The notes below the pieces were generated by a model. It ran no database searches and was not told where the DNA came from. It saw only the letters and a program-made list of their open reading frames with translations. From Tubulanus polymorphus (taxonomy: Eukaryota > Animalia > Nemertea): DNA of 64,000 bases. Each line of letters opens with the position of its first letter. Position 1 is the stretch's first letter. Position numbers and translations under genes: made by a program. The stretch covers positions 7,510,655 through 7,574,654 of the forward strand of contig NC_134033.1 of NCBI RefSeq assembly GCF_964204645.1. Direction: 5' to 3'. This document shows positions 31,001 to 64,000 of this stretch, in pieces.

Positions 31001-34000
31001 GTGTCACTACTTCTCCAGAATTATTCCAGCTACCCCAAGTAAGCCCAAGTAAGAGCCCTGCAGAGTTGCCACTTATGTGAAGCTAAAAATCTGGAAAATT
31101 AGTCGGGAGGTCTGGGGCCCTCCCCCAGAAAAATTTTTGAAATTAGAACGCCAGGAGATGCGTTCTGGCGCAATTCGCGTTATAGGCCTCACTTTCATTA
31201 CCGGGAGTGTGTATCAATTTTCACGTCTGTCAATTACAATCCAATGAAAATCTGTCGCTTCAAACTTTCAGTAAGCGTTTTCTCAAAGGTTATACACTTA
31301 CTCACTCCAAGATATGTCAATAACAACAATGTGTATAGATCATTTTTTCAAATAGCGATTGGTTCCGCCAAATACACCTCATATATAAACCAGAGCCAAA
31401 AACAAACGAAGCGTCAGTCGATTTCGATCGTCGCGTCATCTTGGTTTAATCGTGTACTGCGGGGTTGTTGCCACGTAGTGGCAGCACAAACCCTCTACGG
31501 AGCCGTTACGTTTTGATGTTTAGGGTCGAATCCCGAATTGATTTTATTTTTTTTGCGATGTTTTATTTTGTGGTTATTTGAGTTCTCCCAAAAATCCGGA
31601 AATGAAATTGGATTTTTTTAAATCCGGAATTCCGGAGAAATCCGGAGAAGCGGCAACTCTGGCCCTGCGTCGTTTCAGATCATTGCTGCTTTAGGCGATC
31701 ATGGAGCCAAGATACTTGAAGTCCTGGACCACATTTATGGCCTCACCATATACATAGAGATCACTTGGATCATTGCTGTTAGACACGCACTCTATTTTTG
31801 GTATACTGATGATGAGGCCAATCTTGGCAGCAGAGATTTTCGTACTAGTCAGTTGGTTCTGAGCTTGCGTCTTTACAGACTCCAGAAATGCAATATCGTC
31901 CAGATCATTTATCCACTTTTTTGGGTGCCGTCGTGATGCCCTTGGATGCGTTACGATCCCAGAGTCATTACAGGCAGTCGCTCGCTTCAAGAGATAGTCA
32001 ATCAAAAATACAATTGAAATACAATGGAACCTCATTATAACAAAAATTCGAAAAATCTATTCATAAACAACTGATACTTTGTTTGTTGTATTCAGCATGA
32101 AATCGATTAAAATATTTCAAAATTAGTACAAAATTCATAGTAGATTGTTATATTGAGTTGTTAAATCTGAGATAGTTCAGATGAAGGAGGTTCCAATGAA
32201 ACAAGGTTTGTTCTTTGTACCTGCGGATATGACAAAGGACGTAGTCTGTCATAATCCTCTTGTCCAGCAGTGTCCCATAAACCTAAATTCACAGCTATTC
32301 CATCCACCATCATTGACGCTGTGTAATTATCAAACCTTCAAAAAAAAAATCAACATCAATTCATTCGTTAATAACCATTTGTTTATTATGGAGCATGTAT
32401 TGTCAACTAATCATCGATTAGTCAGATGAATAAAGGGCTTTTCAGAGGCTAGGGCACCAAACTTTCTAACAGTGATCTAGGCCTATGTCAATGTACTTTC
32501 CAGTGGCTGATTTAAAGATAGACTTCAGAATTTAGTTTAATTAGTGTCCATATGATACCTATAGCATGTAAAATTTTTGGCCTGTTAAAATCTGGACATT
32601 TTGTATGCCAGTGATTCCATATCCTGTAAACTGATCGAACATTAATGTAAATAAACAGGTGCACAATCTCCCGTCAACGCATCAAATGCATCAACCGCAT
32701 AGCATGAGTAACCTTGCTGAGTCACTTGAGACACTCATTATATTAATCCACAATTGGCTAGTGATATTCTTAACGTTGATTTTTATCATTGAAAAATGAA
32801 AGGGAAAATAATATTCAAGAAAGCTTAAATATTATGTTTAAAGAAAGCATAGAAATGACATCTAAAATCATAAAATCAGGACATAGATATTCTAAAATCC
32901 TATCTTTATAGCATAAGTCGGAACATCGTATTTTTCAATACCGACGCATAGCGATTAGGCCTACGACCAAATCGGGACACTTCGCAGCACTGAATTTAAA
33001 TGGGAATGTTACTCAGACCATATGCTACATGTTAGCCAAGTTTGAAAAAATATCTCGAAAAATGGAGGATGTATCGCGCTAACTTCTTTTCCAATGCAGC
33101 CCCCGCAATTTAAACTTCAGCGACCTTATTTCATGTTCAAAAAAATTTGCCAGCCTTAAGGGGCAACTGTGACTAAAACTGGAATCTGAGCGATCAATTT
33201 TTTGCCAGTTGCGTTTACAACTGACAGCGACGGTTGGCAACAAACAAACTGCCAGTCGCTACGAGTTGAACATGTTGAACTTTCAGCAACACGTCGCAGC
33301 GACTACCACAAGTTGTGCAGCGTTTTTGTCGACTTGAGTGCTTCTGCAACCAATTTCCGATATCAAACTGTAATGACATTGACCTTGCCACTGTATGGGT
33401 TCGAGTCCTGCTACATAATGTTTATTAAAACAATTCTATTTGGGCCGCTTTTTGTCAATAACTTTATGTTCCAACTATGAACACTGATAAATAGAACAGT
33501 CTTCATCTTGAAATATAAACTCTAAAATGAAGGTTCTATCGCGATAACTTTGTTTTCCAATGCAGCCCACACAATTTAAGCTACAGCGACCTAATTTCAT
33601 GTTCAACAAAATTTGCCAGCCTAAAGGGGCACTCAGATCGCCCTTACAACTATGACTACAACTGGAAGCGACTGATTCGAGCAACTAGCAGCGATCGTCA
33701 GCGATCAGTTTTTGGGCCAGTTGCGTTTACAATTGACAGCTGCGGTCGGTGATGGACAAACTGCCAGTTGCTGAGTTCAACATGTTGAACTTTCAGCAAC
33801 GTATCGCAGCGACTACCACAAGTTGCGCAGTGTTTTTGTCGACTTGAGTGCTTCTGCAACCGATTTCCGATATCTAACTGTAATGACATTCACCTTGCCG
33901 CTGTGTATGGGTTTGAGGCCTGCTATATAATGTTTAGTAAAACAATTCTGGCTGCAATTAACTGATATCTATCTCAGTGTAGAGTTAACAAATAAAAACC

Positions 34001-36551
34001 CACAGTTAGGTCTGTAAAACAGTTAATTTTCTTGACAGTTTCGAAGCTTTCACTAAGCCCCATCATCAGAAGAACAAAAACACAACAATAATTAAAGTAA
34101 TTCAAAATTACTTTAAATGGTAAATTACTTCAAAATTTTGCTAAATTAGCAAAATAAAATCTATACATGCAAAGTAAACGGTAACCAGTCTACCTGGTCG
34201 GCCTCGGATTGCACCAGAAAGCACCTGCTTGCACGGAATTTTCAAAAAATTTCTGGGGAGGACCCTCATACCCCCTCTATTCTTCAGTAGGGGTCCAGGG
34301 ACATCATACCCACTTGGGAAGTGGTTTCAGATGATCAGCAATCTAACCAATTCAATATTCAACGCCCCATCGAATGAAAAAATCCAACCCTGAAACTCAC
34401 CACAATCATAGAACATAGCAGCAGCTACAATTCTGTAATTGATTGTGGTAACAAAATATGCCTAGTTACCAATAGGCCTTTGATATGGAAAAACTATGCT
34501 ATTCTACTATTCAACGCCTCCTGGTGACCATATACAAAGCCCAATGACCTTGAAACTCACCATAATTATAGAACATGTCGGGAGCTACAACTTTCCAAAT
34601 GATTGTGGTAGCAAAATATGCATAGGTACGAATATTATATAGAATTACTAAGTTATTATATTGTTCAACGCCCCCTGGTGGCCATATACAGAAACCAATG
34701 ACCTTGAAACTCACCACGATCATAGAATATGTCAGCAGCTACAATTTTGTAATTGATTGTGGTAACAAAATATGCCTAAGTACCAATACAATACGGAAAT
34801 ACTAAGTTATTCTACTATTCAACACCCCCTAGTGACCATATAGAATTACCGATGACCTTGAAACTCACCACGATCATAGACCATGTCATGAGCTACAACT
34901 TTCCAATTGATCGTGGCAACAAAAATCCCTTATCAATAAAATGTGGAAAAACTTTTTACCACCTACGAATGAGTACTGATGACACCAAAATGGCTGCCAA
35001 TTGCGTCATAATTGCCTAATCAAATATACCTGTTTTGGGTATAAGAGATCCCTTACCAAAGAATACTCATCACAAATTGCAATGAAAAATGGCAAACAAT
35101 AAGGAAGCTACAGAACTCAGAGTTCAGACAAAAATTGACATTTTTGGGCATAAAAAAAGTCACAGGACAGCCAGCTTGAGTCCGATCAACTCAACTTTTC
35201 TCATGCTGATGGGCCCTTTGGAGATACAAATATATACGAACGATCAAGGTAGTTCATAAACGCTTCTTCAAAATTTCCCTTGAAAACTTCGAAAATGTGT
35301 AAAAGTGCCGATTTTGGCAAACAACAATGGCTGCCAGTTGGCCATCTTGAATCTGACAGGGCCAGTTTTTTAGCTGAAGATGTGTCTAGGGTAGATACAC
35401 GTATAAACCAAATATCAAGACATTACCTCAAAGCGTCTTCAAAACTTCCCAAAATAACTGACAACGGACACACGTACCCACTAAAACGACTTATGGGGTG
35501 AGTTAAAGGTACGGACAACACTTGTGAGGTTCACTTTTCTATTCTCGTAAGAGAGTCCTTGTGGGCTTCTGTCCAAAATTAGTGAGTTGACAGACAATGT
35601 GAAAAATGTGAAATAAGTATTCATGTGGCGAACAACAATCGTAAGTCCAACATGGGCTAAAAACGGAAATTGTTTTTACTTTAAAAATTTGAAACTAACG
35701 AGCCGGTTCAGCTGGTTTTGGTTTTTAAACCAAATTACCAATTTCTCAAATAAGCAATGATCTTTAAAACGTAAAATCTCGGGATTTTTCATTCTTATGC
35801 AGTCGATATGCGGAAAAAATTCATGCTGTTCCGATGAGAATTATCAATTCTTGATTTAAGGACAGTTCTGCTGAGGGTTATAATCACTCGTAGTTTCTAT
35901 TAATAAGTTGAGAATGAGAGGACCATGTTGAGTAAGTATGCAGCACTGCAGGGACTAGTTACTGATTCATATTATTGTGATTCAGAACTAATGCAGTAGT
36001 TCACATCAATACGAATATATCAAATGATCTATAACTCAAATGAACTGAATGGTTCCTGATTTTAGGGAAAGACTGCTCTCCTTCAATCAATGGTTTAAAG
36101 GGAATGAATTGTTTAGCCACGTTAATAGAAACATGCTATTTTCTCATATGGTGATTCTCCCTTTTTGATTATGAAATAGCGATGATTTTCTCTCTTCCCT
36201 CTCATAATTATTTGGTGTCTTCCTTACAAACCCACAGATTAAAGGCGATTTTGCATAAAAATGAGAATCGTCTGCACAACTTTGCATGGTATCAGAGTCT
36301 TTTTAAATAAAAATAATATTGCTTTTAATCACATTTTCTATTCTCCACATCTGAGTGTTCCTATTTTGTGTGCAGAGAAACTATAGCGTATGACAGGTTA
36401 TGTAAAAAACTACTCACACAGTAGGAACATACTCCTCAGGAAAACTGTCAGTTGTATACGATATCAGCATACATGTTTTACCTACAGTTCCATCACCGAC
36501 CACTACACACTTAATAGGGTGACCCTGCGTCATCAATACTGGAGATGCCAT
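15996..36551 (-). CDS. Mtl: Rho-family small GTPase, Mtl/MIG-2 (RhoG/Rac-related) type; spliced gene, 5 coding exons, 606 nt, 201 aa
   Basis: Manual exon join with GT-AG sites and consistent phases gives [202 protein letters not shown]1-G5 motifs are all present. [19 protein letters not shown] and KREQG match Mtl/MIG-2 as recalled. Confidence 0.93.
16551..17645. mobile_element. MITE / non-autonomous TIR element with apparent 5-bp TSD (GATCA)
   Basis: TIR caagcccgtagccagg / cctggctacaggcttg. GATCA at 16546-50 and 17646-50. An extra internal terminus at ~17042-17057. Confidence 0.65.
17921..18135 (+). repeat. Interspersed repeat shared with ~58727-58936
   Basis: ttaccttaccgctgtttc...gggccgtaaacatcga...ccccattcaatg...gtcacttcgattatc is present in both places. 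Confidence 0.8.
18205..18866 (+). pseudogene. Decayed CR1/L2-clade LINE reverse transcriptase fragment
   Basis: Translates to [17 protein letters not shown] and [22 protein letters not shown] (RT motifs), with stops and frameshifts. Confidence 0.8.
18900..19630 (+). pseudogene. CR1-like LINE relic: ORF1 piece plus ORF2 linker piece
   Basis: DIEITHRVP...[12 protein letters not shown] is ORF1-like. YWVIIRKL...IPTL...FEKANLLLN is ORF2 tether-like. Confidence 0.6.
21395..21505 (+). pseudogene. CR1-like ORF2 fragment upstream of the RT domain
   Basis: [19 protein letters not shown] matches the KA-x-GPDGI motif. Confidence 0.7.
22533..22820 (-). mobile_element. piggyBac-type MITE, copy 2 (inverted; in the last Mtl intron)
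   Basis: TTAA TSD. Reverse-complement match to 11621-11918. Confidence 0.88.
23128..23470. repeat. Degenerate short-unit tandem array with ttcgatcgaa / ttcgttcgaa palindromes
   Basis: Recurring tttt(t)cgt.cgaac / ttgtcagaac units. Confidence 0.55.
23505..24107 (-). pseudogene. Inverted second copy of the decayed LINE RT fragment
   Basis: Reverse-complement similarity to 18205-18866 along its length. Confidence 0.75.
24606..24766 (-). CDS. Mtl: Mtl-like GTPase coding exon 4 (G4, Rho insert, G5)
   Basis: tttgtag acceptor. Encodes (G)[10 protein letters not shown]...[20 protein letters not shown] donor. Lies within track ORF 24570..24776. Confidence 0.95.
25354..25471 (-). CDS. Mtl: Mtl-like GTPase coding exon 3
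   Basis: ttttctctgcag acceptor. Encodes [45 protein letters not shown] donor. Confidence 0.95.
25674..25812 (-). mobile_element. Short HINE terminal fragment
   Basis: actaggggtc terminus plus one ~150-bp unit. Confidence 0.6.
26914..27620. mobile_element. hAT-type MITE
   Basis: Perfect TIR cagggtcttagccag / ctggctaagaccctg and perfect 8-bp TSD tttacagc. Confidence 0.9.
28107..28707. mobile_element. Palindromic MITE with CAC...GTG ends and 3-bp GAT TSD (CMC-like)
   Basis: TIR cacaggca.ttgaatatgggctttga. Internal 33-bp inverted match tcctatctccgtaatgcttaaatctacccgcaa. Confidence 0.8.
30574..32010 (-). pseudogene. 5'-truncated RTE-clade LINE (RT C-terminus to 3' tail), split by a MITE
   Basis: DDIAFL...KIGLIIS..K...VQDFKYLGS, then DLKRRRAL. 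(GAT)n tail at ~30574-30586. Confidence 0.8.
31061..31661. mobile_element. MITE with 6-bp TSD inserted in the RTE relic
   Basis: TIR cagagttgcc / ggcaactctg. gccctg is duplicated at 31055-60 and 31662-67. Confidence 0.85.
32221..32335 (-). CDS. Mtl: Mtl-like GTPase coding exon 2 (switch II)
   Basis: T-rich tract plus AG acceptor. Encodes [40 protein letters not shown] donor at 32220. Confidence 0.95.
33089..33949 (+). repeat. Local tandem duplication (~33089-33439 vs ~33555-33949) including a MITE-like piece
   Basis: ttccaatgcagccc...aaaacaattct repeated with indels. Confidence 0.8.
34029..34074 (-). ncRNA. Minimal type I hammerhead ribozyme motif (Penelope-like), intronic and sense to Mtl
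   Basis: UUCUU-CUGAUGA-U-GGGGCUU-AGUGA-AAGCUUC-GAAA-C-U-G-UC-AAGAA: intact core, 7-bp helix II, 5-bp helix I. Confidence 0.65.
34288..35460 (-). mobile_element. HINE copy 2, in the first coding intron of Mtl
   Basis: taggggtccagggac terminus, subTIR, four ~154-bp units. Body is shared with copies 1 and 3. Confidence 0.8.
36418..36551 (-). CDS. Mtl: Mtl-like GTPase coding exon 1 (P-loop, switch I)
   Basis: ATG at 36551 with in-frame TGA directly before it. Encodes [44 protein letters not shown]. Donor GTGAGT at 36417. Confidence 0.93.
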
Positions 36552-43677: not shown

Positions 43678-46600
43678 CTAGGGGTCCAGGGACACCATGC
43701 CCACTTGGGAAATGGTTTCAAATGCTCAACATCTAACAATTTCTATACATAACGCCCCGTGTGACCATATACAAAAACCAATGACCTAGAAACCAACCAC
43801 AATCATAGTACATGTCGGCAGCTATGATTTTGTAATTGATTGTGATAACAAAATATGCCTCGTTACCAATTTAATATGGAAACACTAAGTTATTCTACTA
43901 TTCAACGCCCCCTGGTGACCATATGCGAAACCCAATGGCCTTAAAACTCACCACAGTCGTAGGACATGTCATGAAACACAACTTTGCAATTGATCATGGT
44001 AATGTAACAAAATTTCATTTCTCAAGACAGATACCTCTATCCCCTTGTTTATTAGCGACCGTACAGAAGATACATTTCCCCTTACTCCAACTCCGGCGAT
44101 AACCCGCGGCTCCTTAGTCCCGAAATTGTTCCCGGTGGTAAATAGTACCGCCGCCGTATTTATCTCGCCTTTTACACACGAAATAATTATCGAAAGCTAT
44201 CATGTACGATACCGTTTGAAAGAGGATTATAAAGTCTTGACTCGGTGAAAGCATCTACTAATGTCATCGTTTTTAGGCGACACGAGTTGTAGTTTGGTAG
44301 ATGAACCGATTTCGCCGGTTTGTTTACTTCCGGTCCGGCCACATGGCCCGCTCGATAAGCGGGAGAGTTAAAGTTTCTACGAAGACGTCTTGTTACTGTC
44401 ACCATAACATATCACCTTAGTATTTATTCGCAGAAATTAAGTTCTTAGATAATTATCATTATTACAAACCTAGAAGATGATTTCGGCACCTTCGTGTCTT
44501 AAAACTAACGAGTATTCGACGGTTAAACCGGCGATCTCGAACGCAGTCACCCATGACGGCAGCCTTTCGGGACCTCACTTGACTTTACGACCGAACTATC
44601 TAATACGAATTTCATATCATCAGAAAGTACAAGTTCCAAGCTTTTTAATGGTATGTTACTTCAATAAGAAGACAACGTAATTCAGCAGCAACGCGGCTGG
44701 GAAGAATCCTAGGAAGCACATCCGACGGGGCGGCCATTGTTGAGCGACCAGTGAAGCGACGCGGAGTGAAGATGCAACACGTCGGAGTCGGCAATATCAG
44801 AACATAAGGCGCGCAGTTTTCTCTTTCAGTCAGTTACTCGGAGAACGTCTTTTTAAGATATAAGTCGGTCCGGGGACAGCGCCGCCTGTCGGCGTTGCAG
44901 GTCTTGTGCCCGTTCGTCTCTGTTCCTTCTTTCTGAGTTAAAATTAAGGGCCTTAGGCCCACAGAATCCCCCTTACTGTAAATACGTTACTAGTCTTGAG
45001 CATTGCTCCTTGTTAAATATTAAGCTACGGCAAAATCATAGTACGATTTCCTTACTTATGGCCATTAAGCCATTGGGCATTACGTTCACCGTCCATACTT
45101 ATGTATTATTGACGGGCCCTGTGTTTCTCGTTTGTCCTTAGGAACGTCGAACTATAATCCGTTAATACTTATGTATTAAGTACGGATTCTTGATACTAGG
45201 TCTTGGGTTCTTGTGCTGATTCCTCCCCCGTTCATACTAAAGTATATAGAGACGGGTTTGACCATTATTTGCGCTTATAGCATTATTGAACTATTATTCT
45301 TCCTTCGTGTATGTGTGATGTAGGCCCTTAAGGCCAGCTTTTATGCGCGTATCTTTAAGTTTCAATAAATTTTATATAGGTAACCCTTATGGTGTTAAAA
45401 TGTTCGCGGTCTTTATGTTCGTTGTATAAGTTTGAAGCGTAACAGCAAGTGTCAATCGCATTATCTTTTCCCTTTGTAAGTACGTAAGCATTTGTGGAGT
45501 ATGAACCTGTCTTGTATTTGAGCATGACGTATGTCAGTTTCCGGTAGATAAATAAAAGCTGCTGTCGCAGCACGTAATGGTATTAACGATTTAGTAATAG
45601 TATGTTGGGTAGTAAAACCGTTGACTTGGTCGGAGCGTCCATGGTCTGTATAGAGGCTTACTCTCGGAAATGGTAGAGTCCAGCGGAACGTAGTGCAATC
45701 CCGTTCGGGTGACGGGCGGTTTCTGTTTATTCCGCTATCCAATTTAGGCTCAAGCGAGGAAATTCCACGTCGGGGGTGGGTGACGTGGTGTGTGATACGG
45801 TCGATTCAGGTTCATGTATAGCTACGAAGTCGTATGTTATTGGGTGAACAGAAGGGTGCGCATCGCTATCTGTAGGTTCTAACATAGGGTTGGGCCCGAT
45901 CCTTAGTTCCCGGAGGATAGTTTTCGAATCGACCCAGTCGTTACGTTCCTGGATCTATCAGCAATCTACACCCGGGGTTGCGGGAATTGCTTACTCGTGT
46001 GTTAGGTCGAGTTAAGCCTGAGAGTCATTTATTATTCTACACACAAACATAACTTCCTGTGGTGGTCGTAGACCCCTTCATAAACATCTTTCCCGTTGTT
46101 TACGCGACGCAGGCGGACCCTTTGAAACGGCGCCATTTTACATACATCGATTACATAAGTACACATTTACATATATACACTCTGAGGACATATAAGAGGA
46201 TCACGCTACCGCTATGATCGACCCTGGTGCGAGTGAGTGCACACGCTCGTCCGGTAAGTATGTTCAGGCCCTATGTGGATGGAGACATGCTAGAATTTTG
46301 ATGTATTCGAACTACGAAACGCTACAGTAACGAAATATGTCTAGGTACCAATCTAATAAGGAAATACTAAGCTATTCTACTATTCAACGCCCCCTGGTGT
46401 CTATATGGAATAAGTAATGTCCTTCAAAACTCACCACAATCATAGACAATGTCATGAACTACAACTTTGCAATTGATTATGGTAAGAAAATATGCCTGGG
46501 TACTAATCTAATAAGGAAATACTAAGTTATTCTACTATTCAACGCCCCCTGGTGACCATATACATTAACTAATGTCCTTTTAAACTCACCATAATCATGG

Positions 46601-47435
46601 AAGATGTCATGAGCTACAACTTTGCAATTGATTGTGGGAACAAATATGCATAGGTACAAATATAATATAGAAATACTAAGTTATTGTATTATTCAACGCC
46701 CCCCTGGTGGCCACATACAAAAACCAATGACCTTGAAACTCACCAATTTCATAGAACACGTTATGGGCTACAACTTTCCAATTGAACATAGTAACACATT
46801 ATGCTTAGGTATCAATTTAATGTGGAAAAACTTTTTCCCACCTACGAATGAGTACTGATGACACCAAGATGGCCGCCAATTGCGTCATAATTGGCTGATC
46901 AAAAATACCTGTCTCAGGTATAAAACATCCCTTTCCAAAGAATACCCATCACAAATTGCAATGAGAAATGGCAAACCAGTAGGAAGCTACAGGACCTAGA
47001 ATTCTGGCCAAAATTGGCATTTTTGGGCACTAAAAAGGTCATAGGACGGCCATCTTGAGTCAGATCGACCCAATTTTTCTTATGCTGATGGGCCCTTCGT
47101 AGATTCAAATATAAATCAAAGATCAAGGTAATTGATCAAAGTGTCTTCAAAATTTCCCTCGAAAACTTCGAAATTGTGTAAAAAGTGCTGATTTTGGCGA
47201 GCAACAATGGCTGCCAGTCGGCCATCTTGAATCTGACAGGGCCAGTTTTTGGGCTGAAGATGTGTCTAGGGTAGATACATGTATAAACCAAATATCGAGA
47301 CATTACCTTGAAGCATCTTCAAAACTTCCCAAAATAACTGTATTCCGTCTACAGACGGACGAACGCTACGACGAACGGACGGATGGACGAAAAGTGAATG
47401 CAATAGCCCGCGGGGACTAAAGTCCCAAGTGGGCT
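43678..47435 (-). mobile_element. HINE copy 3, complete, carrying a nested solo LTR
   Basis: Perfect 12-bp subTIRs (43699-43710 and 47423-47434), hairpins at both ends, (GGAC/GAAC)n microsatellite. Inserted in an A/T run with no TSD; the empty site is visible at 2761-2772. Confidence 0.85.
44003..46326. mobile_element. 2,324-bp solo LTR (TGT...ACA) with 4-bp GTAA TSD
   Basis: catg-GTAA-[tgtaac...gctaca]-GTAA-cgaaatatg versus uninterrupted units catggtaacaaaatatg. No coding capacity recognised. Confidence 0.75.
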
Positions 47436-50556: not shown

Positions 50557-52339
50557 TGTACTGAATTGCTGATGACATTTTGGGTCTGAATCAGTGATAT
50601 TTAATGTAATTGATTGAACCATTTACGAGAGGTGCGGAACTGCACTTTTACCTGTGTTCGGTTATGAGTTCCGACCACTAGTAGACTAGCTACGAAAACC
50701 GAAGTTCGGCCAGACAGTCACAACGTCAACGTCGCCGTAGCGTAATCGTAGTAAATGAAATAACGGCCACACTAGAAATCAGTTTCGGGTTCAAGTTTTT
50801 TCTGTAATCTATCAATTTGAAGAACAAAACGTACCTCCTCGTTTTACCTAAACATCTAAAGATCCCAGTGGTCTATCATCAAAAGCAATCGAAGAGGTTT
50901 CAACAGTTGAAATCGATGAATATTGGCGACATTTTTTCATATATTTCGACCTCTCCCATCAGCGCCGCCATATTGGTTATTCTCTGACGTCATTACTGTC
51001 AATGACCAATCAACGAGGCGTATATGATACTATTTTTAGTAATGAATATTTCGGGGAAGCCCCGGAAGTGAGTGGGATGCATTGAACTTAAGCATATTTG
51101 GTGGACTTCCAAGATTATGTGAAAAACTACGGTCTAAGCTTCTTTAGGGATAGAAAAGAAATTTCCAAACCGATTTTTCGCACCTACTAAATCAGACCGG
51201 AGCCGACTGGAACAAACCGGAGCCGACCCGAAAACGTCCTCTAGTAGATTGGTCGCCTGTGATATTGTAAAGTCTTTTAGAGCTTACTTTTAATTCCAAA
51301 TAGGCCTAGCACTATAATCAATAATCATGTCCTAAAATGCATTTCAGTAGGCCCAGCAAAAGAAAGCGAAGTGACTAAATTTATAAAATCTTAACCTTAT
51401 TTTTTATATATTTTCAGATGAAAGGAAGCAAGAGAATTTTAAAAACCAATCAACAGACGAAATTGGAAAAGCTGCAACGAGTAGCTGGTCAAACCAACTT
51501 TGATTTTGTAAACGCCTAATTAATTTACCCTTACAACAATTAGATTAACAGACACATTTTGAATCTGCATTGATAATCGAAAATTCTAATAACTGTGTAA
51601 ATCTTAATAATAATTTTTCTCACCACAATTAACTTATATCCAAATTCCATAATTGCAAATTGGTTTAATTCAACACAAGATTTGTCCCTTTGATCCTCTG
51701 TTCCATTCTTATGTTATCTCACTCTATTACTTGTAGTCATTCAACTTGTATTCAATTTGTTTTGATTTTAGTATCCCCTAGATTGTCTCTATAATAATAT
51801 TTTTAAGATTTACACGTATCATTAATTAGTTTGCTCTTCTTTAGCTTTTAACTTTTTCTTAGATTTTTGTATCATTTCTGATTACTTTGTCTCAAAAGAA
51901 TATTGAAATATTGAATAAACTACTTCCTCAAAGAAAGATTTTATGACTAATTGTATTATCTTTTCGTTATTATTGTAGGATTCTTTTTATATTACTCTTT
52001 ATCCATCGACACCGGCGTTGGCCTTAAAACTTTGCCCATTGAGATTGACTTAGGAAAACAAACGAAAGTTACACTTCATATCCTCCCTATCTGGATACCT
52101 GTTGTCGCAATCTAGTGCCAACAACATTGCTTCTTGTAAACCATACTTGATAAAAATATAAACCCGATTACTCTTAAATCCACAATTTCGAAAAATAAAC
52201 ACCATTATATTCGGCCTACAGTACAGCTAAACTGCTGAGCTTGCCTGACTTCCGGGTTCATCAGTGCTCGAGTGTGACCTCGATTCATCGACAGTAACTA
52301 AAAATAGATCAGGTGCGCTGCGCTATTCTCCGCCACCTC

Positions 52340-52622
52340 TATCTTCAATTAGAGACCGGCCAAAGCTCAAACCCGATGCGCCGTATGAGCTCGATGCTTA
52401 TGCCATATTCTTGCGCGAGTGTCAGTTCGCTATAAATGTAATCGAAGCGTTGGCGACATTGGAGTATCCAGAGAATCTCCACCAACTCGTTATGAAATTA
52501 CCAAATAGGCTACATGATAGATGGCGCGGTATTGCATACGAAATACGAGAAAAGGGTGGCAAAGTCCGATTTTGTCACCTCGTTAATTTTGTTCATAAGG
52601 AAGCGCAAAAGATGAATGATCC
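52340..52622 (+). pseudogene. BEL/Pao LTR-retrotransposon gag fragment
   Basis: PENLHQLVMKLP...RWR...F.HLVNFV.KEA...NDP resembles Pao gag. It ends at the Gypsy LTR. Confidence 0.7.
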
Positions 52623-52762
52623 TGTGACGTCCAACTGATTAAACACGGACAATAGAGTTAGACAATACTACAAAGTCTCTTTATTCAGCCACGTAACTAC
52701 ATCCGGCCTACACTAGGTTACATAAACAACCTAACACTTATACACTGACGTATGACACTACA
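52623..52762 (-). repeat. Gypsy 3' LTR (140 bp) with PPT at 52763-52774
   Basis: Minus strand reads AAAAGGAGGGGT then TGTAGTGTC...GACGTCACA. AATAAA inside. Confidence 0.8.
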
Positions 52763-53091: not shown

Positions 53092-56000
53092 CTACACGTA
53101 ATCTTTAAATCTAGCCGGTACGCGTACGTTTCGACCTGATCTCGTTTGTACCGGTTGATCGTCAGCTGGCAACTCCGAATCGAGCAAGCCAGAATCGGTG
53201 ACTATACCGTCGGGCCTGGACTCGATGTCAGAATCGGAATTAGATTTCTCGTCAGCATCATCCGCCTCTACGAATTTCTTTAGGTGAGCGGGATTTCTGA
53301 CGTACTGGTTACCGCTCTCAGATTGAACCGTTACGCCTTTATCGTCCCTGCTAACTACTACTAAGGTCTTATCCGCGTTACGCGTAGACAGTTTATTCTC
53401 TTTTCTCTGTTCGATCAATACGCGATCACCAAATTTCAGATCGCTTGGTTTAGCTCGACGACGCGTATCTGCGTAATCTTTGCCTTTTTGTCTCTCCTCC
53501 CTTATCGCGATCTCTGACGGCCTGATCTGAGACATATTCTCGATCGCCGAACTCAGGCAATTTCGTATGGATTTCCCGGCCAAACATAATCTTGGACGGC
53601 GATACACCGGTCGTTTCTCGCGGAGTGGAGTGGTAAGCTAATAAGAACTTATACAGTTCTCCCTGCCAGTCCTTGCCCTCCGCTTGCGCAATCCGCATGC
53701 TCTTTAGTAATGTCCTATTTTGCCGTTCTATCTCCCCATTAGCCTGTGGCCAGATGGGGGGGGGGGGTGGCTTAACCTGTGCTCGATATTATTCTCGGCC
53801 AGGTAATGTTCGAATTCTTCCGAGATGAATTGTTCATCTCCCGTTGTCAGTTTTCAGCGACCTTGGTAACCCAAATGCTGCGAATATCTTATCTAAACAA
53901 CGTATTATCTCGCGGGACCTATATCGGCTATAATAATCGATAATTGCCAATACGTATTCCCCTCCCGGCATCGGACCAAGGAGGTCTGCGGCGGTATCCT
54001 GCCACGGCCCAGCCGGCAGCTCGTACCTTTTCATCGGTTCCGGTCTAGACGGCAGACTAACAAGTTGGCAACCCCGGCATGGGTTCACAACTTTCTCTGC
54101 ATCACGATCTATGCCCGGCCACCATACTTTCGCTCTCAACCGACGCTTCGTTTTCACGATTCCTTGATGGCCCTCACGACACGTTTCAGTAGTGATTCGG
54201 GGATAACGATACGGCAGCCCCGTAAGATCATGTTATCGACAGCGCAAAGTTCAGCCCGAACGTTCTTATACCCCGGCGGACAGTCGTGCCACTTATCCGT
54301 CTCGATGCACTCTCTGACGATTCGTAGCTTCTCGTCAGACTCAGATGCTCTGCCGATCTCTGAAACCTTCAGCGCGAATGGCGTAGCGTGAGCTACGATG
54401 AACCGCACATACTCCTCGCCCATATTGTCGTCGTTTCCGTCCGACGGATTAATTAGCCGCGACAGCGCGTCTGCGGCCATTTCTTTACCGGGAATATGCT
54501 TGACGGTGAAGTCATAGGGTTGCAAACGTAATACCCACCTCTCAATCCGCGCGCATGGTTTAGACCTTGGCGAATAAATGAAAGTCAGAGGTTTATGATC
54601 CGTAACGATATCGAACCGTATACCGTAAAGAAACGTGTGGAATCTCTCACATGCCCACACGATTCCCAGCGCCTCTCTCTCCGTTTGCGAATAACGCCTC
54701 TCAACCTGAGATAGGCTGCGATTTGCATAATACACGACGCGTTATACCTTGTCCTGCGTTTGCACTAACATTGCCCCCAGACCGACTGGGCTGGCGTCGA
54801 CTATAATTTCAGTCGGGGCGCCCTTTTCGAAATACGCTAGTGTATCTGCTTTACCGAGCTCTAGTTTCAGCTTACCAAACGCACGGTCGTGTTCTTTACC
54901 CCAGTGGAACGATACGCCGTTTCGGGTGAGCTGTCTCAACGGATCCGCGATTGTCGACAAATTATTGATGAATCGACTACTGAAATTCACCAAGCCCAGG
55001 AAGCTCCGGACTTCAGATGCGGAATTCGGCTTCCTTGCCTCGAGAACAGCTTTCACGCGATCTTTTGTCGGAGATATACCATTGGCTCCGAGAATATGAC
55101 CAACATACTCTATCTCAGGTAAACGTATGTGGCATTTCGGCAGATTCACAGTGAGTCCGTTTTTTTGCTAAAGTTTGCAGCACTTTGATAAGACGAGCGT
55201 CGTGCTCATCGTCCCCTTTCCCGTGAATAATCAAGTCATCTGAAATGTTCGCGACGCCCGGACAATCAGCAAGAACCTGCTTAACGACATGTTGGAAGAG
55301 TTCCGGGGCTGAACTTATACCGAACATAAGTCTTTTATAACGGAAAAGACCAAGATGACATGAAAACGTTGTTATACTGCGCGATTCCTCTTCAAGTTCT
55401 AACTGGTGAAATCCACTCTTCAGATCTATCTTACTAAAGACAGTACTACCTTTCATGCTCTGAATTACCTCGTCAACCGTCGGAATCGGGTGACGCTCAC
55501 GTATGACGGCTGTGTTTGCTTGCCGCATATCTACACAGACGCGAACATCCCCCGACGGTTTCGGCGCAATTACAAGTGGAGAGACCCAGGGCGTCGGTCC
55601 TTCCACCTTTTCGATTATGTCTTCCTCAAGGAGCTGATTAATCTTTGTTTCTAATCTGTCACGCAAGGCGAATGGAATTCTCCGAGAATTCTGCGCTACC
55701 GGTTTGATATTCTCATCCACATTGATTTTAGCTTGGTAGCCCTTTAGTTTACCGACCCCCAAACAAATTTCAGGATATCGTTTCTCAATATCGCTTATCG
55801 TTATTAATTGTATTAATGCCCAATCCGACCTTGAGAACGCCCAGTTTCTCAGCAGTAGATTTTCCAATCAGCGATCTACCTTTACCGCTAATAACGAGGA
55901 ACTCCCCCTCCACAGAACGGTCGCCAACTCCGAGGGTTGTGACGAATTTACCGACTGTAGATAACGGTTCTACTGAGCCGTATGGGTAGAGTTTTTTCGA

Positions 56001-56737
56001 TACCCGCACCGCAGTGCAGCTGATTTTCTGTTTTTTCAAATAATTCTACGTATCAGAGTCAATCACATTCACGGTTGAACCCGAGTCAACCAACGCTCGT
56101 ATAATTATACCGCCTACTTTTAAATCGATGACGCCATCGCGCATCTCGTGACGCAACGAAAACAAGCTCTCTCCGACTGTGAATGGATATTCGGCCTCGT
56201 CATCGGAATCTCCCGCCACTGCGTTTGTTTTGTTTCTGTGTCTCGGCTCCCGGCCACCAGTGAACTTACTCTTACAGCATTTTGCGAAGTGACCCACTTT
56301 TCCACATTTCTTGCAGGAAGCTGACTGAGCAGGACATGATTTATCTTTTGAAATATGTCCCTGTTTCCCGCAACGGTAACACGTAATATCTGTCTTCGCG
56401 CCAGAACGATAATTTCTACTGTAAACATTCGGCTTCGGTTTCCTCCTATCGACCTGATTAACCTCACTTCTCGGTTTAACTTCCTCCATCTGCCTAGACT
56501 GTATATCGACGGCTTCCATAGCTCTGGCTAGACTGAAAACAGTATTCAAATCGAGGGCTTCGCCTTTCTGAAGAAGTTTCCTTCGTAGCTGCGAGGACCT
56601 ACATGATTCAACGACATGATCGCAAATCTGTTCCTCCTCGTCGGCAAGCTTACAGTTTTTCGCCTGATTGCGTAATCTGGCAACAAACTGGTCTACCGTT
56701 TCCGAACCCTCCTGTTTCAGGGAACGAAAAATGTGTC
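53092..56737 (-). pseudogene. pol: Gypsy gag-pol, disrupted
   Basis: Two CCHC knuckles, protease LVDSGS, RT (WVSPLV, FSKIDLKSGFHQL, ISDD), RNase H (IVDAS, TDHKPL), integrase (DLLGP, IDYYSR, TDNG). Split into at least 8 ORFs by stops and frameshifts. Confidence 0.92.
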
Positions 56738-56763
56738 ATGTAGGCCAACGATAACACGAAACG

Positions 56764-57387
56764 TTGTATGTTGATAGTAATGAAAGTAATAGTAATTCTG
56801 CTGAAGTTGAACCTGAAGTTATTTGGAAAAGACCTTTCTTATTCTATGATAAGGATAATATAAAAGATCATTTCTGCGAGCCTTGTCGAGTAAAATATAG
56901 CCCTGAAAATATAGAAGATTGGGAGAATCATCAATTTCGTAAAGTACATATAGATAAAATTTCTAATAAATTTGAAACTGAATTCAATGAAAGAAAAAAT
57001 AATTTATTAGGAAAAATAAAATATGAGAAAACGTTACCAGATAATAAAGAAACAGTTGAAAAGTTAGAAAAACAATATAATGAATTAACAAGAAAAACAT
57101 ATAATTGTAAATATTGTAAATTGATTATTACAACAAGTAATTCAAATCTACATAATAGAACAATAAAACATAAAGAAAACGTAAGAAAATACCAGGAGCT
57201 TAATGAAGATCTATTACCAATAAATTATAAACGAAAATGTCCACAATGTAGTTATGCGACCTTAAGACAAGAAGGTACTGTGTTATTTTGTGTTGATTGT
57301 GGATGGCAAAAGAATTTATGGGGTGAAGAAAAAACTAGAAATTTTCTCATAGAACCAAAATTAAATTATCTAGATGAAATTTTTTAA
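56764..57387 (+). CDS. Zinc-finger protein of the virus-like fragment (probably 5'-truncated)
   Basis: 207-codon open frame with CxxC...H...H twice (CEPC, CKYC) and a C4 ribbon (CPQC...CVDC). Confidence 0.55.
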   Translation: MYVDSNESNSNSAEVEPEVIWKRPFLFYDKDNIKDHFCEPCRVKYSPENIEDWENHQFRKVHIDKISNKFETEFNERKNNLLGKIKYEKTLPDNKETVEKLEKQYNELTRKTYNCKYCKLIITTSNSNLHNRTIKHKENVRKYQELNEDLLPINYKRKCPQCSYATLRQEGTVLFCVDCGWQKNLWGEEKTRNFLIEPKLNYLDEIF

Positions 57388-57580
57388 ATATTTTCTATAG
57401 AAGATCATACACCAGAATATATGCAATGGCTTGAAAAAATGAAAATAATAGAAAATAAAAATGGTGAAATAACTAAAAAAGATATTATAAAAACAATTAT
57501 TCCGTCAACATTTAACACAAAACAAAAGAAAATGTATTTATATTTATTATTATGAAAAACCTAAATTAACAGAAGAAGAT

Positions 57581-57763
57581 ATGGAAAATATAAAAAAAAT
57601 ATTCAAACAAATATTAATGTATCATTTGGAAAATAGAATAACAGATTCAATTAATTATGAATTCTTTTTAAATAAGATTGTAAATTATTTAAACATCGAT
57701 ATTATAATTCCATTTGACGAATTAACAAACAAAAAGAAACAAAGAAAGCGAGATAAAATGTGA
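57581..57763 (+). CDS. Small hypothetical protein of the virus-like fragment
   Basis: 60-aa ATG ORF within a run of short same-strand ORFs. Confidence 0.3.
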   Translation: MENIKKIFKQILMYHLENRITDSINYEFFLNKIVNYLNIDIIIPFDELTNKKKQRKRDKM

Positions 57764-57891
57764 TACAAGATAGAACTTTATTTAAATGAGAAAAATGAAA
57801 TGGAAGAACCTAAACAAATTATACAAGAACAATTAAATGAAAATGAAGAAGCCACGAGTGATTTCGAGTATGATGATATTGATTTTATGTT

Positions 57892-58343
57892 TTAATAACC
57901 ATAAGGTAATGTTTTTATACCATCATCTAAAATACGCCTTCATCAAATGGATTCAAACTAGTTTTTTCAACTTCATTAATGTACATCTCGTGATCTTCTG
58001 ATCTTAAACAATTCATTTTAAGTTTCATTACAATTGATTTATATAAACACTTTATATAATCTTGAAATTCTATATGTTTATCAACCACATGTTTTGTTAT
58101 TCCTTTTAACTTTTTAGCTTCATGATCTTTTGTTCTGTAACTATACATTTTACTTCTTATCCCAACAAATTCAATCATTTCATCACCCCCTAATTCATCT
58201 TTAAATTTACCAGGAATCTTTTTATTATCATTGCTAAATAGTTCATGATCTTTGGGATAATTGCTAAAATCAAAATGATGTTTTAATGTTTTTAAGTCTT
58301 TTGTTATGTCATTTGTCTTGATTTTTAGTATGTAACTGTCAGT
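57892..58343 (-). pseudogene. polB: Family B DNA polymerase (Polinton-type pPolB) C-terminal palm/thumb fragment
   Basis: TDS...FDFSNYPKDH.LF...NKKIPGKFKDE.GG...EFVGIRSKMYS...KLKGI...LRS..H...KTSLNPFD, then after a frameshift RILDDGIKTLPYGY-stop. Confidence 0.88.
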
Positions 58344-58508
58344 ATTTTTTTGGATTAATGGGAACCCAGAATTGAATGTTCCATCATCTGTTGATAAATC
58401 ATAAACATAGTCAGTTGGGTTATATATTTCAAATAAATCTTTAACTTCTTCTGTAAATTCTTTTTCTACATGCCTTAAATTAAAACAATTTGGTTTAGAT
58501 TTAATTAA
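58344..58508 (-). other. C-terminal part of an intein (blocks F/G), in frame with the polymerase
   Basis: LIKSKPNCFNLRHVEKEFTEEVKDLFEIYNPTDYVYDLSTDDGTFNSGFPLIQKN, followed directly by extein TDS. Confidence 0.8.
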
Positions 58509-58690
58509 TTAGGGTTTTCTGTTACATCACAGAAAACCCTATTGAGATTCGCGTGTTTCTTATTATTAGGGTTTTCTGTTACATCACAGAAAACCCTATT
58601 GAGATTCGCGTGTTTCTTATTATTAGGGTTTTCTGTTATTTCACAGAAAACCCTATTGATATCCGCGTGATTATTATTATTATTATTTTC
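58509..58690 (+). repeat. Three 57-bp tandem units, each with a 13-bp hairpin, followed by (TTA)n; likely a HINE-type terminus
   Basis: tagggttttctgt-N6-acagaaaacccta at 58510, 58567 and 58624. Confidence 0.85.
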
Positions 58691-59165
58691 TTCCACACTA
58701 TTTTTACCAAAAGAACATAGGCTTTGTTACCTTACCGCTGTTTCATATACAATCCATATAATATCGTTCAGCTCACTGAGATCTACAAATAGCCCGCGTG
58801 TTTTTTCACGAATCATCGTTACAAAAGCGCTGTCGGGCCGTAAACATCGACAATTTAGCCCCATTCAATGGGGCGACATGTTTTTCGAGTCGTCATCCCG
58901 AGATCAACCCGCAGGCCGACTGTCACTTCGATTATCAATTCAAGTATAAATGAACTAATTTATTGCCGCAGACTTCAAATTCAGTCGCGGTCTTCAAACA
59001 GTGATTTTAACAATAGCCCATTTTCCTCATCAAATCATATTACCGATACACTGGAAGTTGACTACTTTAGATTTTAAAAGCACTGTCGAGCCGTAAACAT
59101 CGACGAATCGACGTGTGTCACTACATCGTCGTTCCGGAGATCAGCTGCGAGTTTCTCCTCATCAT

Positions 59166-62100
59166 GAGAATCAAATCGAGTACAAATTAATTTATTACTA
59201 CCAGTGATTTGGCTGCGGGTTTCAAGGAGTTAGTATAACAATACCTATTTTTCTTTACCGAATTAACCGTGTATTTACTAAGATAAATCTTTAGTGTACC
59301 GGGGAATCGTAGGCCTAAACTAAACACGCCGAAGAGATATAGCGGAGAAAAGCTGTTATGTCGACGAGGTATCAAAATAAAAGAATATATTACTTTTTTC
59401 GGCCGCGGCCCTCTTTATCAATACCATCAATACTCTATATTTCCTACAATACATACCGATCATATTCAAATGCACAAGGTATTTACTAAATACAAGTATA
59501 TAACACACTCCTATCCGTATGCTGGACTCACACTTGACATTCGGAGTAAGCGTTCGCTGTGGGGGAAAGGGATCGTTCGCTGTGTCGCTTGTAGTGTTTA
59601 TCGAGTTTTAGGCGACCTTAAAGCTTTAGTATGGTGGCTGATAAGATAAATAACACGAATATGCAAATAAGGGCGACATTACGACAAAACTAAAATAACG
59701 CGAGAAAACAATGATTTTGATTTTGTCGCCCGCGACAATACATTATTTTGGTTTTATCGCCCACGACAATTCATTACTTTAGTTTTATCGCCAGCGACAA
59801 TGCATTATTTTGGTTTTGTCGCCCGCAACAATTCATTATTTTGGTTTTATATTTAGTTTTTGTCGCCCGCGAAATTTTTCTTTTTTGGTTTTGTCGCCCG
59901 CGACAATTCAATATTTTGATTTTATCGCCCGCGATAATTCATTATTTTGGTTTTGTCTCCCGCGACAATTCATTATTTTGGTTTTGTCGCCTGCGACAAT
60001 TCAATATTTTGGTTTTGTCGCCCGCGACAATTCATTATTTTGGTTTTATCAACCGTGAGAATTCAATATTTTGGTTTTATCGCCCGCGATAATTCATTAT
60101 TTTGGTTTTATCGCCCACGACAATTCATTATTTTTGTTTTGTCGCCCGAGACAATTCATTATTTTAGTTTTATCGCCCACGACAATTCATTATTTTGGTT
60201 TTATCGCCCGCGACAATTCACCATTTTGATCTTGTCGCCTGGACAATTCACCATTTTGGTTTTGTCGCCCGCGACAATTCATTATTTTGGTTTTGTCGCC
60301 CCGACAATTCTTTTTTTGGTTTTGTTGCCGCGACAATTCTTTTTTTGGTTTTGTTGCCGCGACAATTCATTAATTTGGTTTTGTCGCCCGCGACAATTCA
60401 TTATTTTGGTTTTATCGCCCACGACAATTCATTACTTTGGTTTTATCTCCAGCGACAATTCATTACGGGCTATTGTGTTCACTTTTCGTCCTTCCGTCCG
60501 TCCATAGACGGAATCCAGTTATTTTGGGAAGTTTTGAAGACGCTTCAAGGTAATGTCTTGATATTTGGTTTATACATGTACCTACCCTAGACACATCGTC
60601 AGCCCAAAAACTGGCATTCTGAGAATCAAATCGAGTACAAATTAATTTATTACTACCAGTGATTTGGCTGCGGGCGTCAAGCAGTTAATTTAGTTTTACT
60701 AAGATAAATCATAAGTGTACCGGGGAGTCGTAGCGTGGAGTCGTAGGCCTAAACTAAACACGCCGAAGAGATATAGCGGAGAAAAGCTGTTATGTCGACG
60801 AGGTATCAAAATAAAACAATATATTACTTTATTCGGCCGCGGCCCTCTATATCAATACCATCAATACTCTATATTTCCTACAGTACATACCGATCATTGT
60901 CAAATCCACAAGGTATTTACTAAATACAAGTATATAACACACTCCTATCCGTATGCTGGACTCATACTTGACATTCGGAGTAAGTGTTCGCTGTGGGGGA
61001 AAGGAGATCGTTCGCTGTGTCGCTTGAAGTGTTTATCGAGTTTTACGCGACCTTAAAGCTTTAGTATGGTGGCTGATAAGATAAAAAAACACGAATATGC
61101 AAATGAGGGCGACATTACGACAAAACTAAAATAACGCAAGAAAACAATGATTTTGATTTTGTCGCCCGCGACAATTCATTATTTTGGTTTTATCGCCCAC
61201 GACAATTCATTACTTTGGTTTTATCGCCAGCGACAATGCATTATTTTGGTTTTGTCGCCTTCGACAATTCATTATTTTGGTTTTATATTTTGTTTTTGTC
61301 GCCCGCGACAATTTTCTTTTTTGGTGTTGTCGCCCGCGACAATTCAATATTTTGGTTTTATCGCCTGCGACAATTAAATATTTTGGTTTTATCGCCCGCG
61401 ATAATTCATTATTTTGGTTTTGTAGCGTGAGAAAATTCATTATCTTGGTTTTATCGCCCGCGACAATTCATTATTACTGTTTTATCGCCCGTGACAATTC
61501 GTTATTTTGGTTTTGTCGCCCGCGACAATTTTTTTTGGTTTTGTCGCCTGCGACAATTCAATATTTTGGTTTTGTTGCCCGCGACAATTCATTATTTTGG
61601 TTTTATCGCCCGCGACAATTCAATATTTTGGTTTTATCGCCCACAATAATTCATTATTTTGGTTTTATCGCCCGCGACAATTCATTATTTTGGTTTTGTC
61701 GCCCCGACAATTCATTATTTTGGTTTTATCGCCCGAGACAATTCATTATTTTGGTTTTATCGCCCGCGACAATTCAATATTTTTGTTTTATCGCCCGCGA
61801 CAATTCATTATTTTTGTTTTGTCGCCCGAGACAATTCATTATTTTAGTTTTATCGCCCGCGACAATTCATTATTTTGGTTTTATCGCCCGCGACAATTCA
61901 CCATTTTGATCTTGTCGCCTGGACAATTCACCATTTTGGTTTTGTCGCCCGCGACAATTCATTATTTTGGTTTTGTCGCCCCGACAATTCTTTTTTTGGT
62001 TTTGTTGCCGCGACAATTCTTTTTTTGGTTTTGTTGCCGCGACAATTCATTAATTTGGTTTTGTCGCCCGCGACAATTCAATATTTTGGTTTTATCGCCC

Positions 62101-64000
62101 ACGACAATTCATTACTTTGGTTTTATCTCCAGCGACAATTCATTACGGGCTATTGTGTTCACTTTTCGTCCTTCCGTCCGTCCATAGACGGAATCCAGTT
62201 ATTTTGGGAAGTTTTGAAGACGCTTCAAGGTAATGTCTTGATATTTGGTTTATACATGTACCTACCCTAGACACATCGTCAGCCCAAAAACTGGCATTCT
62301 GAGAATCAAATCGAGTACAAATTAATTTATTACTACCAGTGATTTGGCTGCGGGCGTCAAGCAGTTAATTTAGTTTTACTAAGATAAATCATAAGTGTAC
62401 CGGGGAGTCGTAGCGTGGAGTCGTAGGCCTAAACTAAACACGCCGAAGAGATATAGCGGAGAAAAGCTGTTATGTCGACGAGGTATCAAAATAAAACAAT
62501 ATATTACTTTATTCGGCCGCGGCCCTCTATATCAATACCATCAATACTCTATATTTCCTACAGTACATACCGATCATTGTCAAATCCACAAGGTATTTAC
62601 TAAATACAAGTATATAACACACTCCTATCCGTATGCTGGACTCATACTTGACATTCGGAGTAAGTGTTCGCTGTGGGGGAAAGGAGATCGTTCGCTGTGT
62701 CGCTTGAAGTGTTTATCGAGTTTTACGCGACCTTAAAGCTTTAGTATGGTGGCTGATAAGATAAAAAAACACGAATATGCAAATGAGGGCGACATTACGA
62801 CAAAACTAAAATAACGCAAGAAAACAATGATTTTGATTTTGTCGCCCGCGACAATTCATTATTTTGGTTTTATCGCCCACGACAATTCATTACTTTGGTT
62901 TTATCGCCAGCGACAATGCATTATTTTGGTTTTGTCGCCTTCGACAATTCATTATTTTGGTTTTATATTTTGTTTTTGTCGCCCGCGACAATTTTCTTTT
63001 TTGGTGTTGTCGCCCGCGACAATTCAATATTTTGGTTTTATCGCCTGCGACAATTCATTATTTTGGTTTTGTAGCGTGAGAAAATTCATTATCTTGGTTT
63101 TATCGCCCGCGACAATTCATTATTACTGTTTTATCGCCCGTGACAATTCGTTATTTTGGTTTTGTCGCCCGCGACAATTCATCATTTTGGTTTTGTCGCC
63201 AGCGACAATTGATTATTTTGGTTTTATCGCCCGCGACAATTGATTATTTTGGTTTTATCGCCCGCGACAATTCATTATTTTGGTTTTGTCGCCCCGACAA
63301 TTCTTTTTTTGGTTTTATCTCCAGCGACAATTCATTATTTTGGTTTTGTCGCCCGCGACAATTCTTGTTTTTGGTTTTGACGCCCGCGACAATTCATTAT
63401 TTTCGTTTTATACTTTGTTTTTGTCGCCCGCGACAATTTTTTTTGGTTTTGTCGCCTGCGACAATTCAATATTTTGGTTTTGTTGCCCGCGACAATTCAT
63501 TATTTTGGTTTTATCGCCCGCGACAATTCAATATTTTGGTTTTATCGCCCACAATAATTCATTATTTTGGTTTTATCGCCCGCGACAATTCATTATTTTG
63601 GTTTTGTCGCCCCGACAATTCATTATTTTGGTTTTATCGCCCGAGACAATTCATTATTTTGGTTTTATCGCCCGCGACAATTCAATATTTTTGTTTTATC
63701 GCCCGCGACAATTCATTAGTTTGGTTTTGTCGCCCGCGACAATTCAATATTTTGGTTTTATCACCCGCGACAATTCATTATTTTGGTTTTGTCGCCCCGA
63801 CAATTCATTATTTTGGTTTTATCCCCGCGACAATTCAATATTTTTGTTTTATCGCCCGCGACAATTCATTAGTTTGGTTTTGTCGCCCGCGACAATTCAA
63901 TATTTTGGTTTTATCACCCGCGACAATTCATTATTTTGGTTTTGTCGCCCCGACAATTCATTATTTTGGTTTTATCGCCCGAGACAATTCATTATTTTGG
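59166..64000 (+). repeat. Higher-order tandem repeat (unit ~1.45-1.68 kb) containing 31-bp minisatellite arrays
   Basis: tgagaatcaaatcgagtac at 59166, 60620 and 62300. Arrays of ttcattattttggttttRtcgcccgcgacaa at ~59715-60465, 61150-62145 and 62830-64000. Confidence 0.95.
60467..60615 (+). mobile_element. HINE fragment captured in the higher-order repeat (again at 62147-62295)
   Basis: Reverse complement of ~47240-47410 (gggctattg..ttcacttttcgtcc...ttgggaagttttgaaga...taccctagacacatc). Confidence 0.8.

Follow-up and report, generated by a model that had tools for sequence, protein, structure and literature searches.

A relic of a pol-c-type intein in the polymerase of a Polinton, in what is likely animal nuclear DNA

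Inteins are described as absent from metazoan genomes in the available text of reviews (PMC5784728, PMC8529194), and work on intein inhibitors relies on that absence. An earlier note on one 64-kb stretch of DNA (the window) proposed that an intein has invaded the protein-primed polymerase of an animal Polinton there. Is this segment the end of an intein, did it come from a family able to splice and to spread, and does it lie in animal DNA? The features that bear on these questions are as follows, in window positions; the ORF of each coding feature is given with its strand.

52249..52638, plus strand: BEL/Pao-like gag piece (atlas score 0.92, DUF1759, animal phyla), a lead, with 155 shared features against the 170 usual for true family members
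53092..56768, minus strand: decayed Gypsy-type LTR retrotransposon adjoining the relic on its left (zinc knuckle, RT, RNase H and integrase zinc finger, above Pfam cut-offs)
56769..58509: A+T-rich Polinton relic of about 1.74 kb, delimited by GC content (0.17-0.32 per 100 bases), a step in read depth and ORFs
56755..57387, plus strand: zinc-finger ORF of the relic (zf-U1, PF06220, E 1.8e-5, 24.9 bits, cut-off 22), its 5' end cut by the junction near 56769
57491..57763, plus strand: short VLTF3-like ORF (PF04947, poxvirus VLTF3, E 3e-4, 21 bits, below the cut-off of 25)
57892..57939, minus strand: final polymerase residues, in a shifted frame
57939..58343, minus strand: C-extein of a Polinton protein-primed family B polymerase, beginning with Thr+1-Asp-Ser of motif C (79% to P0002, 81% to P0009)
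58344..58508, minus strand: C-terminal 55 aa of a pol-c-type intein (post-endonuclease linker, block F, block G)
58508..64000: 57-bp tandem array plus a high-copy repeat of the host that contains 31-bp arrays; the N-terminal part of the intein is lost to this region

An intein end in a decayed Polinton polymerase

The minus-strand frame is open from 58508, upstream of the reported ATG; it stops at 57927-57929 after 193 aa and reads as the earlier note had written it. Its first part ends ...YVYDLSTDDGTFNSGFPLIQKN and is followed by TDSYILKIKT; the codon of Asn55 occupies 58346-58344 and the polymerase starts at Thr56. The intein-free polymerase P0002 aligned to residues 55-190 of the frame only (79% over 136 aa). 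Since P0002 reads YFDTDSYILKIKT at the same place, the relative being YFD/TDSYILKIKT (a slash marks the insertion point throughout), the first 55 aa of the window frame stand in for everything upstream of the motif-C D/T bond, and the proposed insertion at D/TD is borne out. The intein-bearing P0016 aligned to the whole frame including the intein end (59% over 189 aa), and the intein end was 75% identical to that of P0141 over 55 columns. Block F reads VYDL (Asp codon 58400-58398) and block G reads GFPLIQKN, with Lys in place of the penultimate His and the terminal Asn encoded at 58346-58344. The block F Asp, terminal Asn and +1 Thr that mark a class 1 intein are thus all present (VYDL ... N/T), and the same holds for the relatives.

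We scored the window with a profile of 65 PolB inteins that contained zero Polinton rows. It picked the 55 aa from among 1,583 six-frame window segments with an E value of 9e-8 (runner-up 0.87) and gave them 32.6 bits, compared to at most 6.9 for shuffled versions (1,437 scored of 2,000); the same search of six-frame segments yielded no second intein piece elsewhere in the 64-kb window. The intein profile check proposed earlier had a split outcome: Pfam and NCBIfam gave no match to the 55 aa alone, whereas the dedicated PolB-intein profile did. A PDB sequence search with the window frame returned no intein match, and the sole Intein_splicing row for the 193-aa frame (E 1.9) covers residues 60-184 and was rejected as not being the intein. 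At the level of sequence, these comparisons confirm that 58508-58344 (minus strand) is an intein C-terminus at the D/TD site of a Polinton protein-primed polymerase.

The copy is a relic, as had been claimed. A stop at 58511-58509 lies at the start of the 57-bp tandem array (58508-58682), and the N-terminal part of the intein is lost at 58509, including Ser1, the block B Thr/His region and the endonuclease motifs described below; the frameshift placed near 57940 corresponds to a change of tblastn frame from -3 to -2 at about 57939. Lacking both the N-terminal part of the intein and the N-extein, the window copy cannot function. Inspection of the 1.74-kb relic, its ORFs and its Pfam matches revealed no terminal repeat and neither an integrase nor a capsid gene. 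The 57491..57763 ORF, covered by reads as deeply as the remainder of the relic, is probably a Polinton accessory gene.

Other elements lie elsewhere in the window. We take 53092..56768 to be Gypsy from its domain order. The high-copy repeat on the right has dispersed relatives elsewhere in the window: between 59165 and 64000 its tandem units measure about 1.68 kb and each contain 31-bp arrays, and parts of them are related to 17851-18134 and 21781-22496. Related tandem arrays of 142-155 bp lie at 12492-12906, 34387-34924 and 46333-46785. The end of an ORF at 31691-32056 (minus strand) presumably resembles a LINE reverse-transcriptase C-terminal region, judged by motif; the ORF has no Pfam match. 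Phage and Rfam searches gave no match.

Full-length relatives, splicing and homing

Intein-bearing relatives were found by several routes. Among the best 120 of 766 relatives of the P0002 polymerase region, two carried an intein (P0016 and P0096), in a search that scores split matches lower; among the best 150 in a representative library, seven had an intein end (P0141, P0143, P0144, P0148, P0156, P0160 and P0163), five of them decayed; and the best 120 of 958 in a profile search added P0288, P0289, P0291, P0293 and P0295. A DNA scan with the terminal motif returned 70 stretches (19 viral, 50 metagenome and one genome), of which 67 continue as giant-virus-type PolB and one, L059, as a further Polinton polymerase with a stop codon inside its intein; L041 and L070 were discarded as chance matches. 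A related-locus search of viral contigs with P0016 or A1 found nothing. Some giant-virus-type PolB in the scan carry shortened pol-c inteins (L001, L005, L011 and L016, 221-229 aa; L009, L015 and L034, 264-277 aa), probably with reduced endonuclease domains. Related inteins also occur in other proteins: P0385 has a LAGLIDADG intein after an ADP-ribosylglycohydrolase domain, a non-polymerase host, and P0292, which is type II topoisomerase/gyrase-like, has at least two intein regions, one of which scores high against the Polinton intein profile.

Seven Polinton alleles are full-length (P0016, P0096, P0288, P0289, P0291, P0293 and P0295), with inserts of 337-354 aa. All seven, and L059, have Ser1, a DVT[EK]DH block B, VYD[LI] and Asn/Thr, together with two intact LAGLIDADG motifs (GFFx[GA]DG and GFYx[AG]DG). 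The full-length copies that the earlier note expected, possibly with a homing endonuclease, exist and carry the motifs of one. The penultimate residue is Lys in the window, P0291, P0295 and Mimivirus, Ser in P0016, and His in P0096, P0288, P0289, P0293 and L059; in class 1 inteins a penultimate His is common but not required. Apart from this variable position, the residue set is the one given for class 1 splicing in the accessible part of PMC7765530. The expected Y-x-D end of the N-extein is present, but ASD, SSD and YSD ends occur beside it.

Domain and structure comparisons agree with this assignment. Only P0293 passes the Pfam cut-off for Intein_splicing (37.7 vs 35.8), while the matches of P0016, P0096, P0288, P0289, P0291 and P0295 fall under it, so that Pfam alone does not call most full-length alleles. 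P0096 passes TIGR01445 (25.2 vs 24.5), LAGLIDADG_3 passes its cut-off in five of the seven, and an A2 profile matches PI-PkoII and the NEQ068 pol-c split intein. The predicted model of P0291 has block pLDDT values mostly of 80-96 across the insert, and its top PDB matches are the endonuclease-bearing inteins 7qsu (E 2e-16), 7qst and 1dq3, along with giant-virus polymerases; by this model, the P0291 intein has a predicted Hint fold. A single-sequence model of P0141 reached pLDDT 34. On the polymerase side, PF03175 (Polinton-type protein-primed PolB) is above cut-off in P0016, P0293 and P0295, and the relatives given by the family search include a stony-coral protein (P0087).

In the intact relatives the insert parts the two motif-C aspartates, so the precursor polymerase would be inactive until splicing. 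From established intein chemistry, splicing is predicted to begin with an acyl shift at Ser1, aided by the block B Thr/His and the block F Asp, and to proceed through attack by Thr+1 and Asn cyclisation, which would restore x-x-D-T-D-S. The insert also houses an endonuclease with two LAGLIDADG motifs, whose predicted targets are the empty motif-C sites of related Polinton copies; these would then be repaired from a filled copy, with rare spread to distant ones.

Intein-free alleles, also anticipated earlier, exist in P0002, in P0415 and in empty members of the P0293 cluster. P0412 (filled) and P0415 (empty) differ by a 339-aa insert and at 6 of 691 other residues, with none of 55 near the site, and P0293/P0433 form a further filled/empty pair with precise junctions. 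By sequence, then, the inserts are in frame, missing from orthologues and precisely bounded, as a class 1 intein should be. Among the 15 listed of 136 members of the P0293 cluster, on contigs of up to 1.0 Mb, seven were filled, six were empty and two had no visible site. The empties differed from the filled members at 13-19 of 55 positions around the site, compared to 7-51 of 850-1,136 elsewhere (about 1-5%); the interval used (-10 to +45) was picked after seeing one pair, and its p-values are thus inflated. The empty sites are of three types, YTD-CDS, YFD-TDA and YGD-TDA. In the empties P0429 and P0431 the site reads YTD-CDS, with Cys for the motif-C Thr, within the patch of local divergence. 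Such a patch is consistent with conversion from a different Polinton, or with escape from cutting; the P0412/P0415 pair has none.

Intein and polymerase trees were built separately. The intein trees were quick trees with no outgroup, and of the 183 inteins parsed, 77 remained after filtering for lengths of 300-430 aa and at 70% identity; P0290, P0292, P0303, P0358, P0385, P0005 and six loci were dropped as unparsed, and L012 was excluded from the later trees. The 12 Polinton inteins tested came together on a single branch (SH-aLRT 100) amid 65 further PolB inteins, which are mostly giant-virus by contig or protein name, with one in an archaeal bin (P0398). This single branch was recovered in three trees, one of them made without the terminal motif. 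The polymerase tree had 46 rows and kept 35 of 47 empty polymerases; P0415 and P0295 joined only in the later distance analysis. On it, intein state required 9 changes, 7 of them forced by starred branches, and was not clustered beyond shuffles (126-133 of 500 were as low). Across 10 alleles, which as kin are not independent, intein and extein distances were correlated (Mantel r 0.49, p 0.006), and the groupings largely agree. P0295 breaks this agreement, with an extein at 6.3-6.8 changes per column from the others but an intein at a distance of 1.2-1.9. Because its intein is nested among the rest despite so distant an extein, the intein likely jumped at least once, into a distant polymerase class, as judged from these sequences. 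P0295 scores 111 bits against PF03175, compared to 52-62 bits for window-type polymerases; by this score P0295 is likely Alpha-class and the window type Beta-class, in the terms used in the available text of PMC8502044. The idea of a single animal Polinton lineage thus held as to the polymerase but not as to the number of lineages: there are several of one class plus one very distant class, and this spread suggests that Polintons likely captured the intein long ago.

As to the source, a giant-virus subgroup including P0370 (Mimiviridae sp. ChoanoV1) shares the GF/GY-type intein end. A sister relationship of the Polinton inteins and the GFPL-type giant-virus inteins was not rejected (p-AU 0.67; the constrained tree was 12.4 higher than the free quick tree). 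Since the trees have no outgroup, the direction from virus to Polinton rests on the intein being common in giant-virus PolB and rare in Polintons. We infer that a giant-virus PolB intein was likely the source of the Polinton family, through a single capture. From then on the family would have stayed with one class of Polinton polymerase, being gained and lost repeatedly among close relatives.

We put at roughly 0.85 the probability that the window holds a relic of a class 1 pol-c-type intein in Polinton motif C, with intact relatives predicted to splice and to home, a likely giant-virus origin and at least one jump. An alternative history accepts a true intein but has it gained once in antiquity and then inherited and precisely lost, with no present-day homing. 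The agreement of the intein and extein trees in grouping the same alleles, a Mantel correlation that plain inheritance with losses would equally produce, and the clean flanks of P0412/P0415 all suit such a history, but it leaves unexplained why both LAGLIDADG motifs are intact in every full-length allele, why the P0295 intein sits in a very distant polymerase and why divergence in the P0293 cluster is concentrated around the site; we regard it as unlikely. Homing, which the distribution of filled and empty copies points to, remains our preferred account. That the family is also native to animal genomes and still active, having resided long in Polintons, gating the polymerase by splicing in animal cells, homing between integrated copies, meeting altered empty sites and having crossed the two main polymerase classes, is a broader proposal to which we give even odds.

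The host of the window copy

The host-side context in the window consists of the BEL/Pao-like and Gypsy-like remnants and the dispersed repeats. The BEL/Pao group is called metazoan in the accessible text of PMC3118150, and the gag piece at 52249-52638 therefore points to an animal host. P0096, whose NCBI record lies in a symbiont bin from the lucinid clam Ctena orbiculata, appears to be carry-over from the host. On this indirect evidence, the window copy likely lies in animal nuclear DNA.

Read depth was measured on about 12% of the raw data of run X6, at 85% likeness; X6 is a sample other than the assembly's, in which alleles may add differences. Depth was 36-39 on the Gypsy flank, stepped up where the relic begins on the left (about 38 to about 250), and ran at 192-310 over 56819-58105, 451-484 on the conserved C-extein and 3,800-4,600 over 58808-59500 in the high-copy repeat. 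On the intein end it was 156, about 4x the Gypsy flank, and at position 58455 153 of 167 reads were unlike the window copy. Together, this depth and these differences indicate that several other intein-bearing copies likely exist. At the frameshift site the length differed from the window in 167 of 248 reads, and X1 and X2 contigs diverge from the window at 58509-58510; the length differences and contig exits suggest that the truncation and frameshift are absent from most other copies. Loose contig ends occur at 56768 and 58509-58510. One X1 contig crosses the left junction with just 29 letters on one side, and none of the contigs listed reaches the threshold of 31 on both sides.

These observations bear on the possibility that the intein is functional solely in Polinton-like viruses that are free or infect protists, the animal copies being passive fossils or the host not an animal at all. 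Several intact alleles do sit on metagenome-size contigs, several others are decayed fragments, and VLTF3-like genes have been described from PLVs and non-animal datasets (10.64898/2026.06.19.733378, as far as its available text goes). The BEL/Pao-like piece within the window, the multicopy signal of the intein end in the reads and the seven listed full-length filled copies on contigs of 95 kb to 1.0 Mb nevertheless speak against it, and we judge it quite improbable. Chance resemblance, or an assembly chimera of giant-virus and Polinton sequence, would account for the silence of Pfam and NCBIfam on the 55 aa but is refuted by the independent homologues P0141 and P0016 with the same intein-polymerase junction, by a profile score far above shuffles and by runs from two studies of the same organism that cover the intein-polymerase stretch. 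Overall, the interpretation in the earlier note is supported.

Relation to known inteins and polymerase insertions

Endonucleases inside Polinton pPolB have been reported before. A nematode study describes HNH and VSR nuclease domains there (10.1101/2023.08.22.554363), and PMC11071308 suggests intein invasions as the origin of nuclease insertions in pPolB. As described in the available text, these cases resemble the Polinton inteins in placing an endonuclease within pPolB but have no splicing domain, LAGLIDADG motifs or motif-C insertion, whereas the Polinton inteins have all three. The word intein occurs neither in the nematode study nor in the main Polinton papers listed by the literature search. 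We found no report of a Polinton intein in the literature, although supplements, Repbase, InBase and subscription journals may hold earlier annotation.

Viral polymerase inteins on nuclear scaffolds, with viruses as carriers, are likewise known: the accessible text of PMC10710043, from which the words polinton and metazoa are absent, describes inteins in the DNA polymerases of giant viruses, located on nuclear scaffolds of algal and protist origin. The carrier there is a giant virus and the hosts are an alga and protists; in the present case a multicopy Polinton carries the intein, and its host is likely an animal. The Chilo iridescent virus intein, cited in the part of PMC549080 available, also belongs to a virus of animals, but to a free insect giant virus; it is Gln-type and neither integrated nor in a Polinton. 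The window copy is a known kind of intein, pol-c, in a host class for which we found no report, and likely in animal nuclear DNA. A conserved Polinton intein family would qualify the rule that animal genomes are without inteins. It would also mark an exchange of genes between Polintons and giant viruses, and so imply that both were once in a shared cell. That divergent alleles keep their splicing and endonuclease motifs intact further suggests that these Polintons still express their polymerase and depend on it, a point relevant to whether they replicate. The near-identical filled and empty copies offer a way to test homing in a multicopy eukaryotic element.

The closest known systems are the pol-c inteins of Mimivirus and other giant viruses. 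The available text of PMC549080 gives pol-c as the Mimivirus (YGD/TDS) and archaeal insertion site, and by site and sequence kinship the Polinton intein is a pol-c allele. The two share the motif-C site, Ser1, DVT[EK]DH, LAGLIDADG motifs and the Asn/Thr end. The closest giant-virus inteins are of similar length (about 340-360 aa) and about 40-45% identical, and one giant-virus subgroup has the same FNxGFPLIxKN end, which bears out the KN/TDS kinship with giant-virus alleles put forward in the earlier note. However, the giant-virus inteins reside in an RNA-primed, delta-like PolB, whereas those described here reside in the protein-primed polymerase of an integrating element, and the Polinton alleles form a branch of their own.
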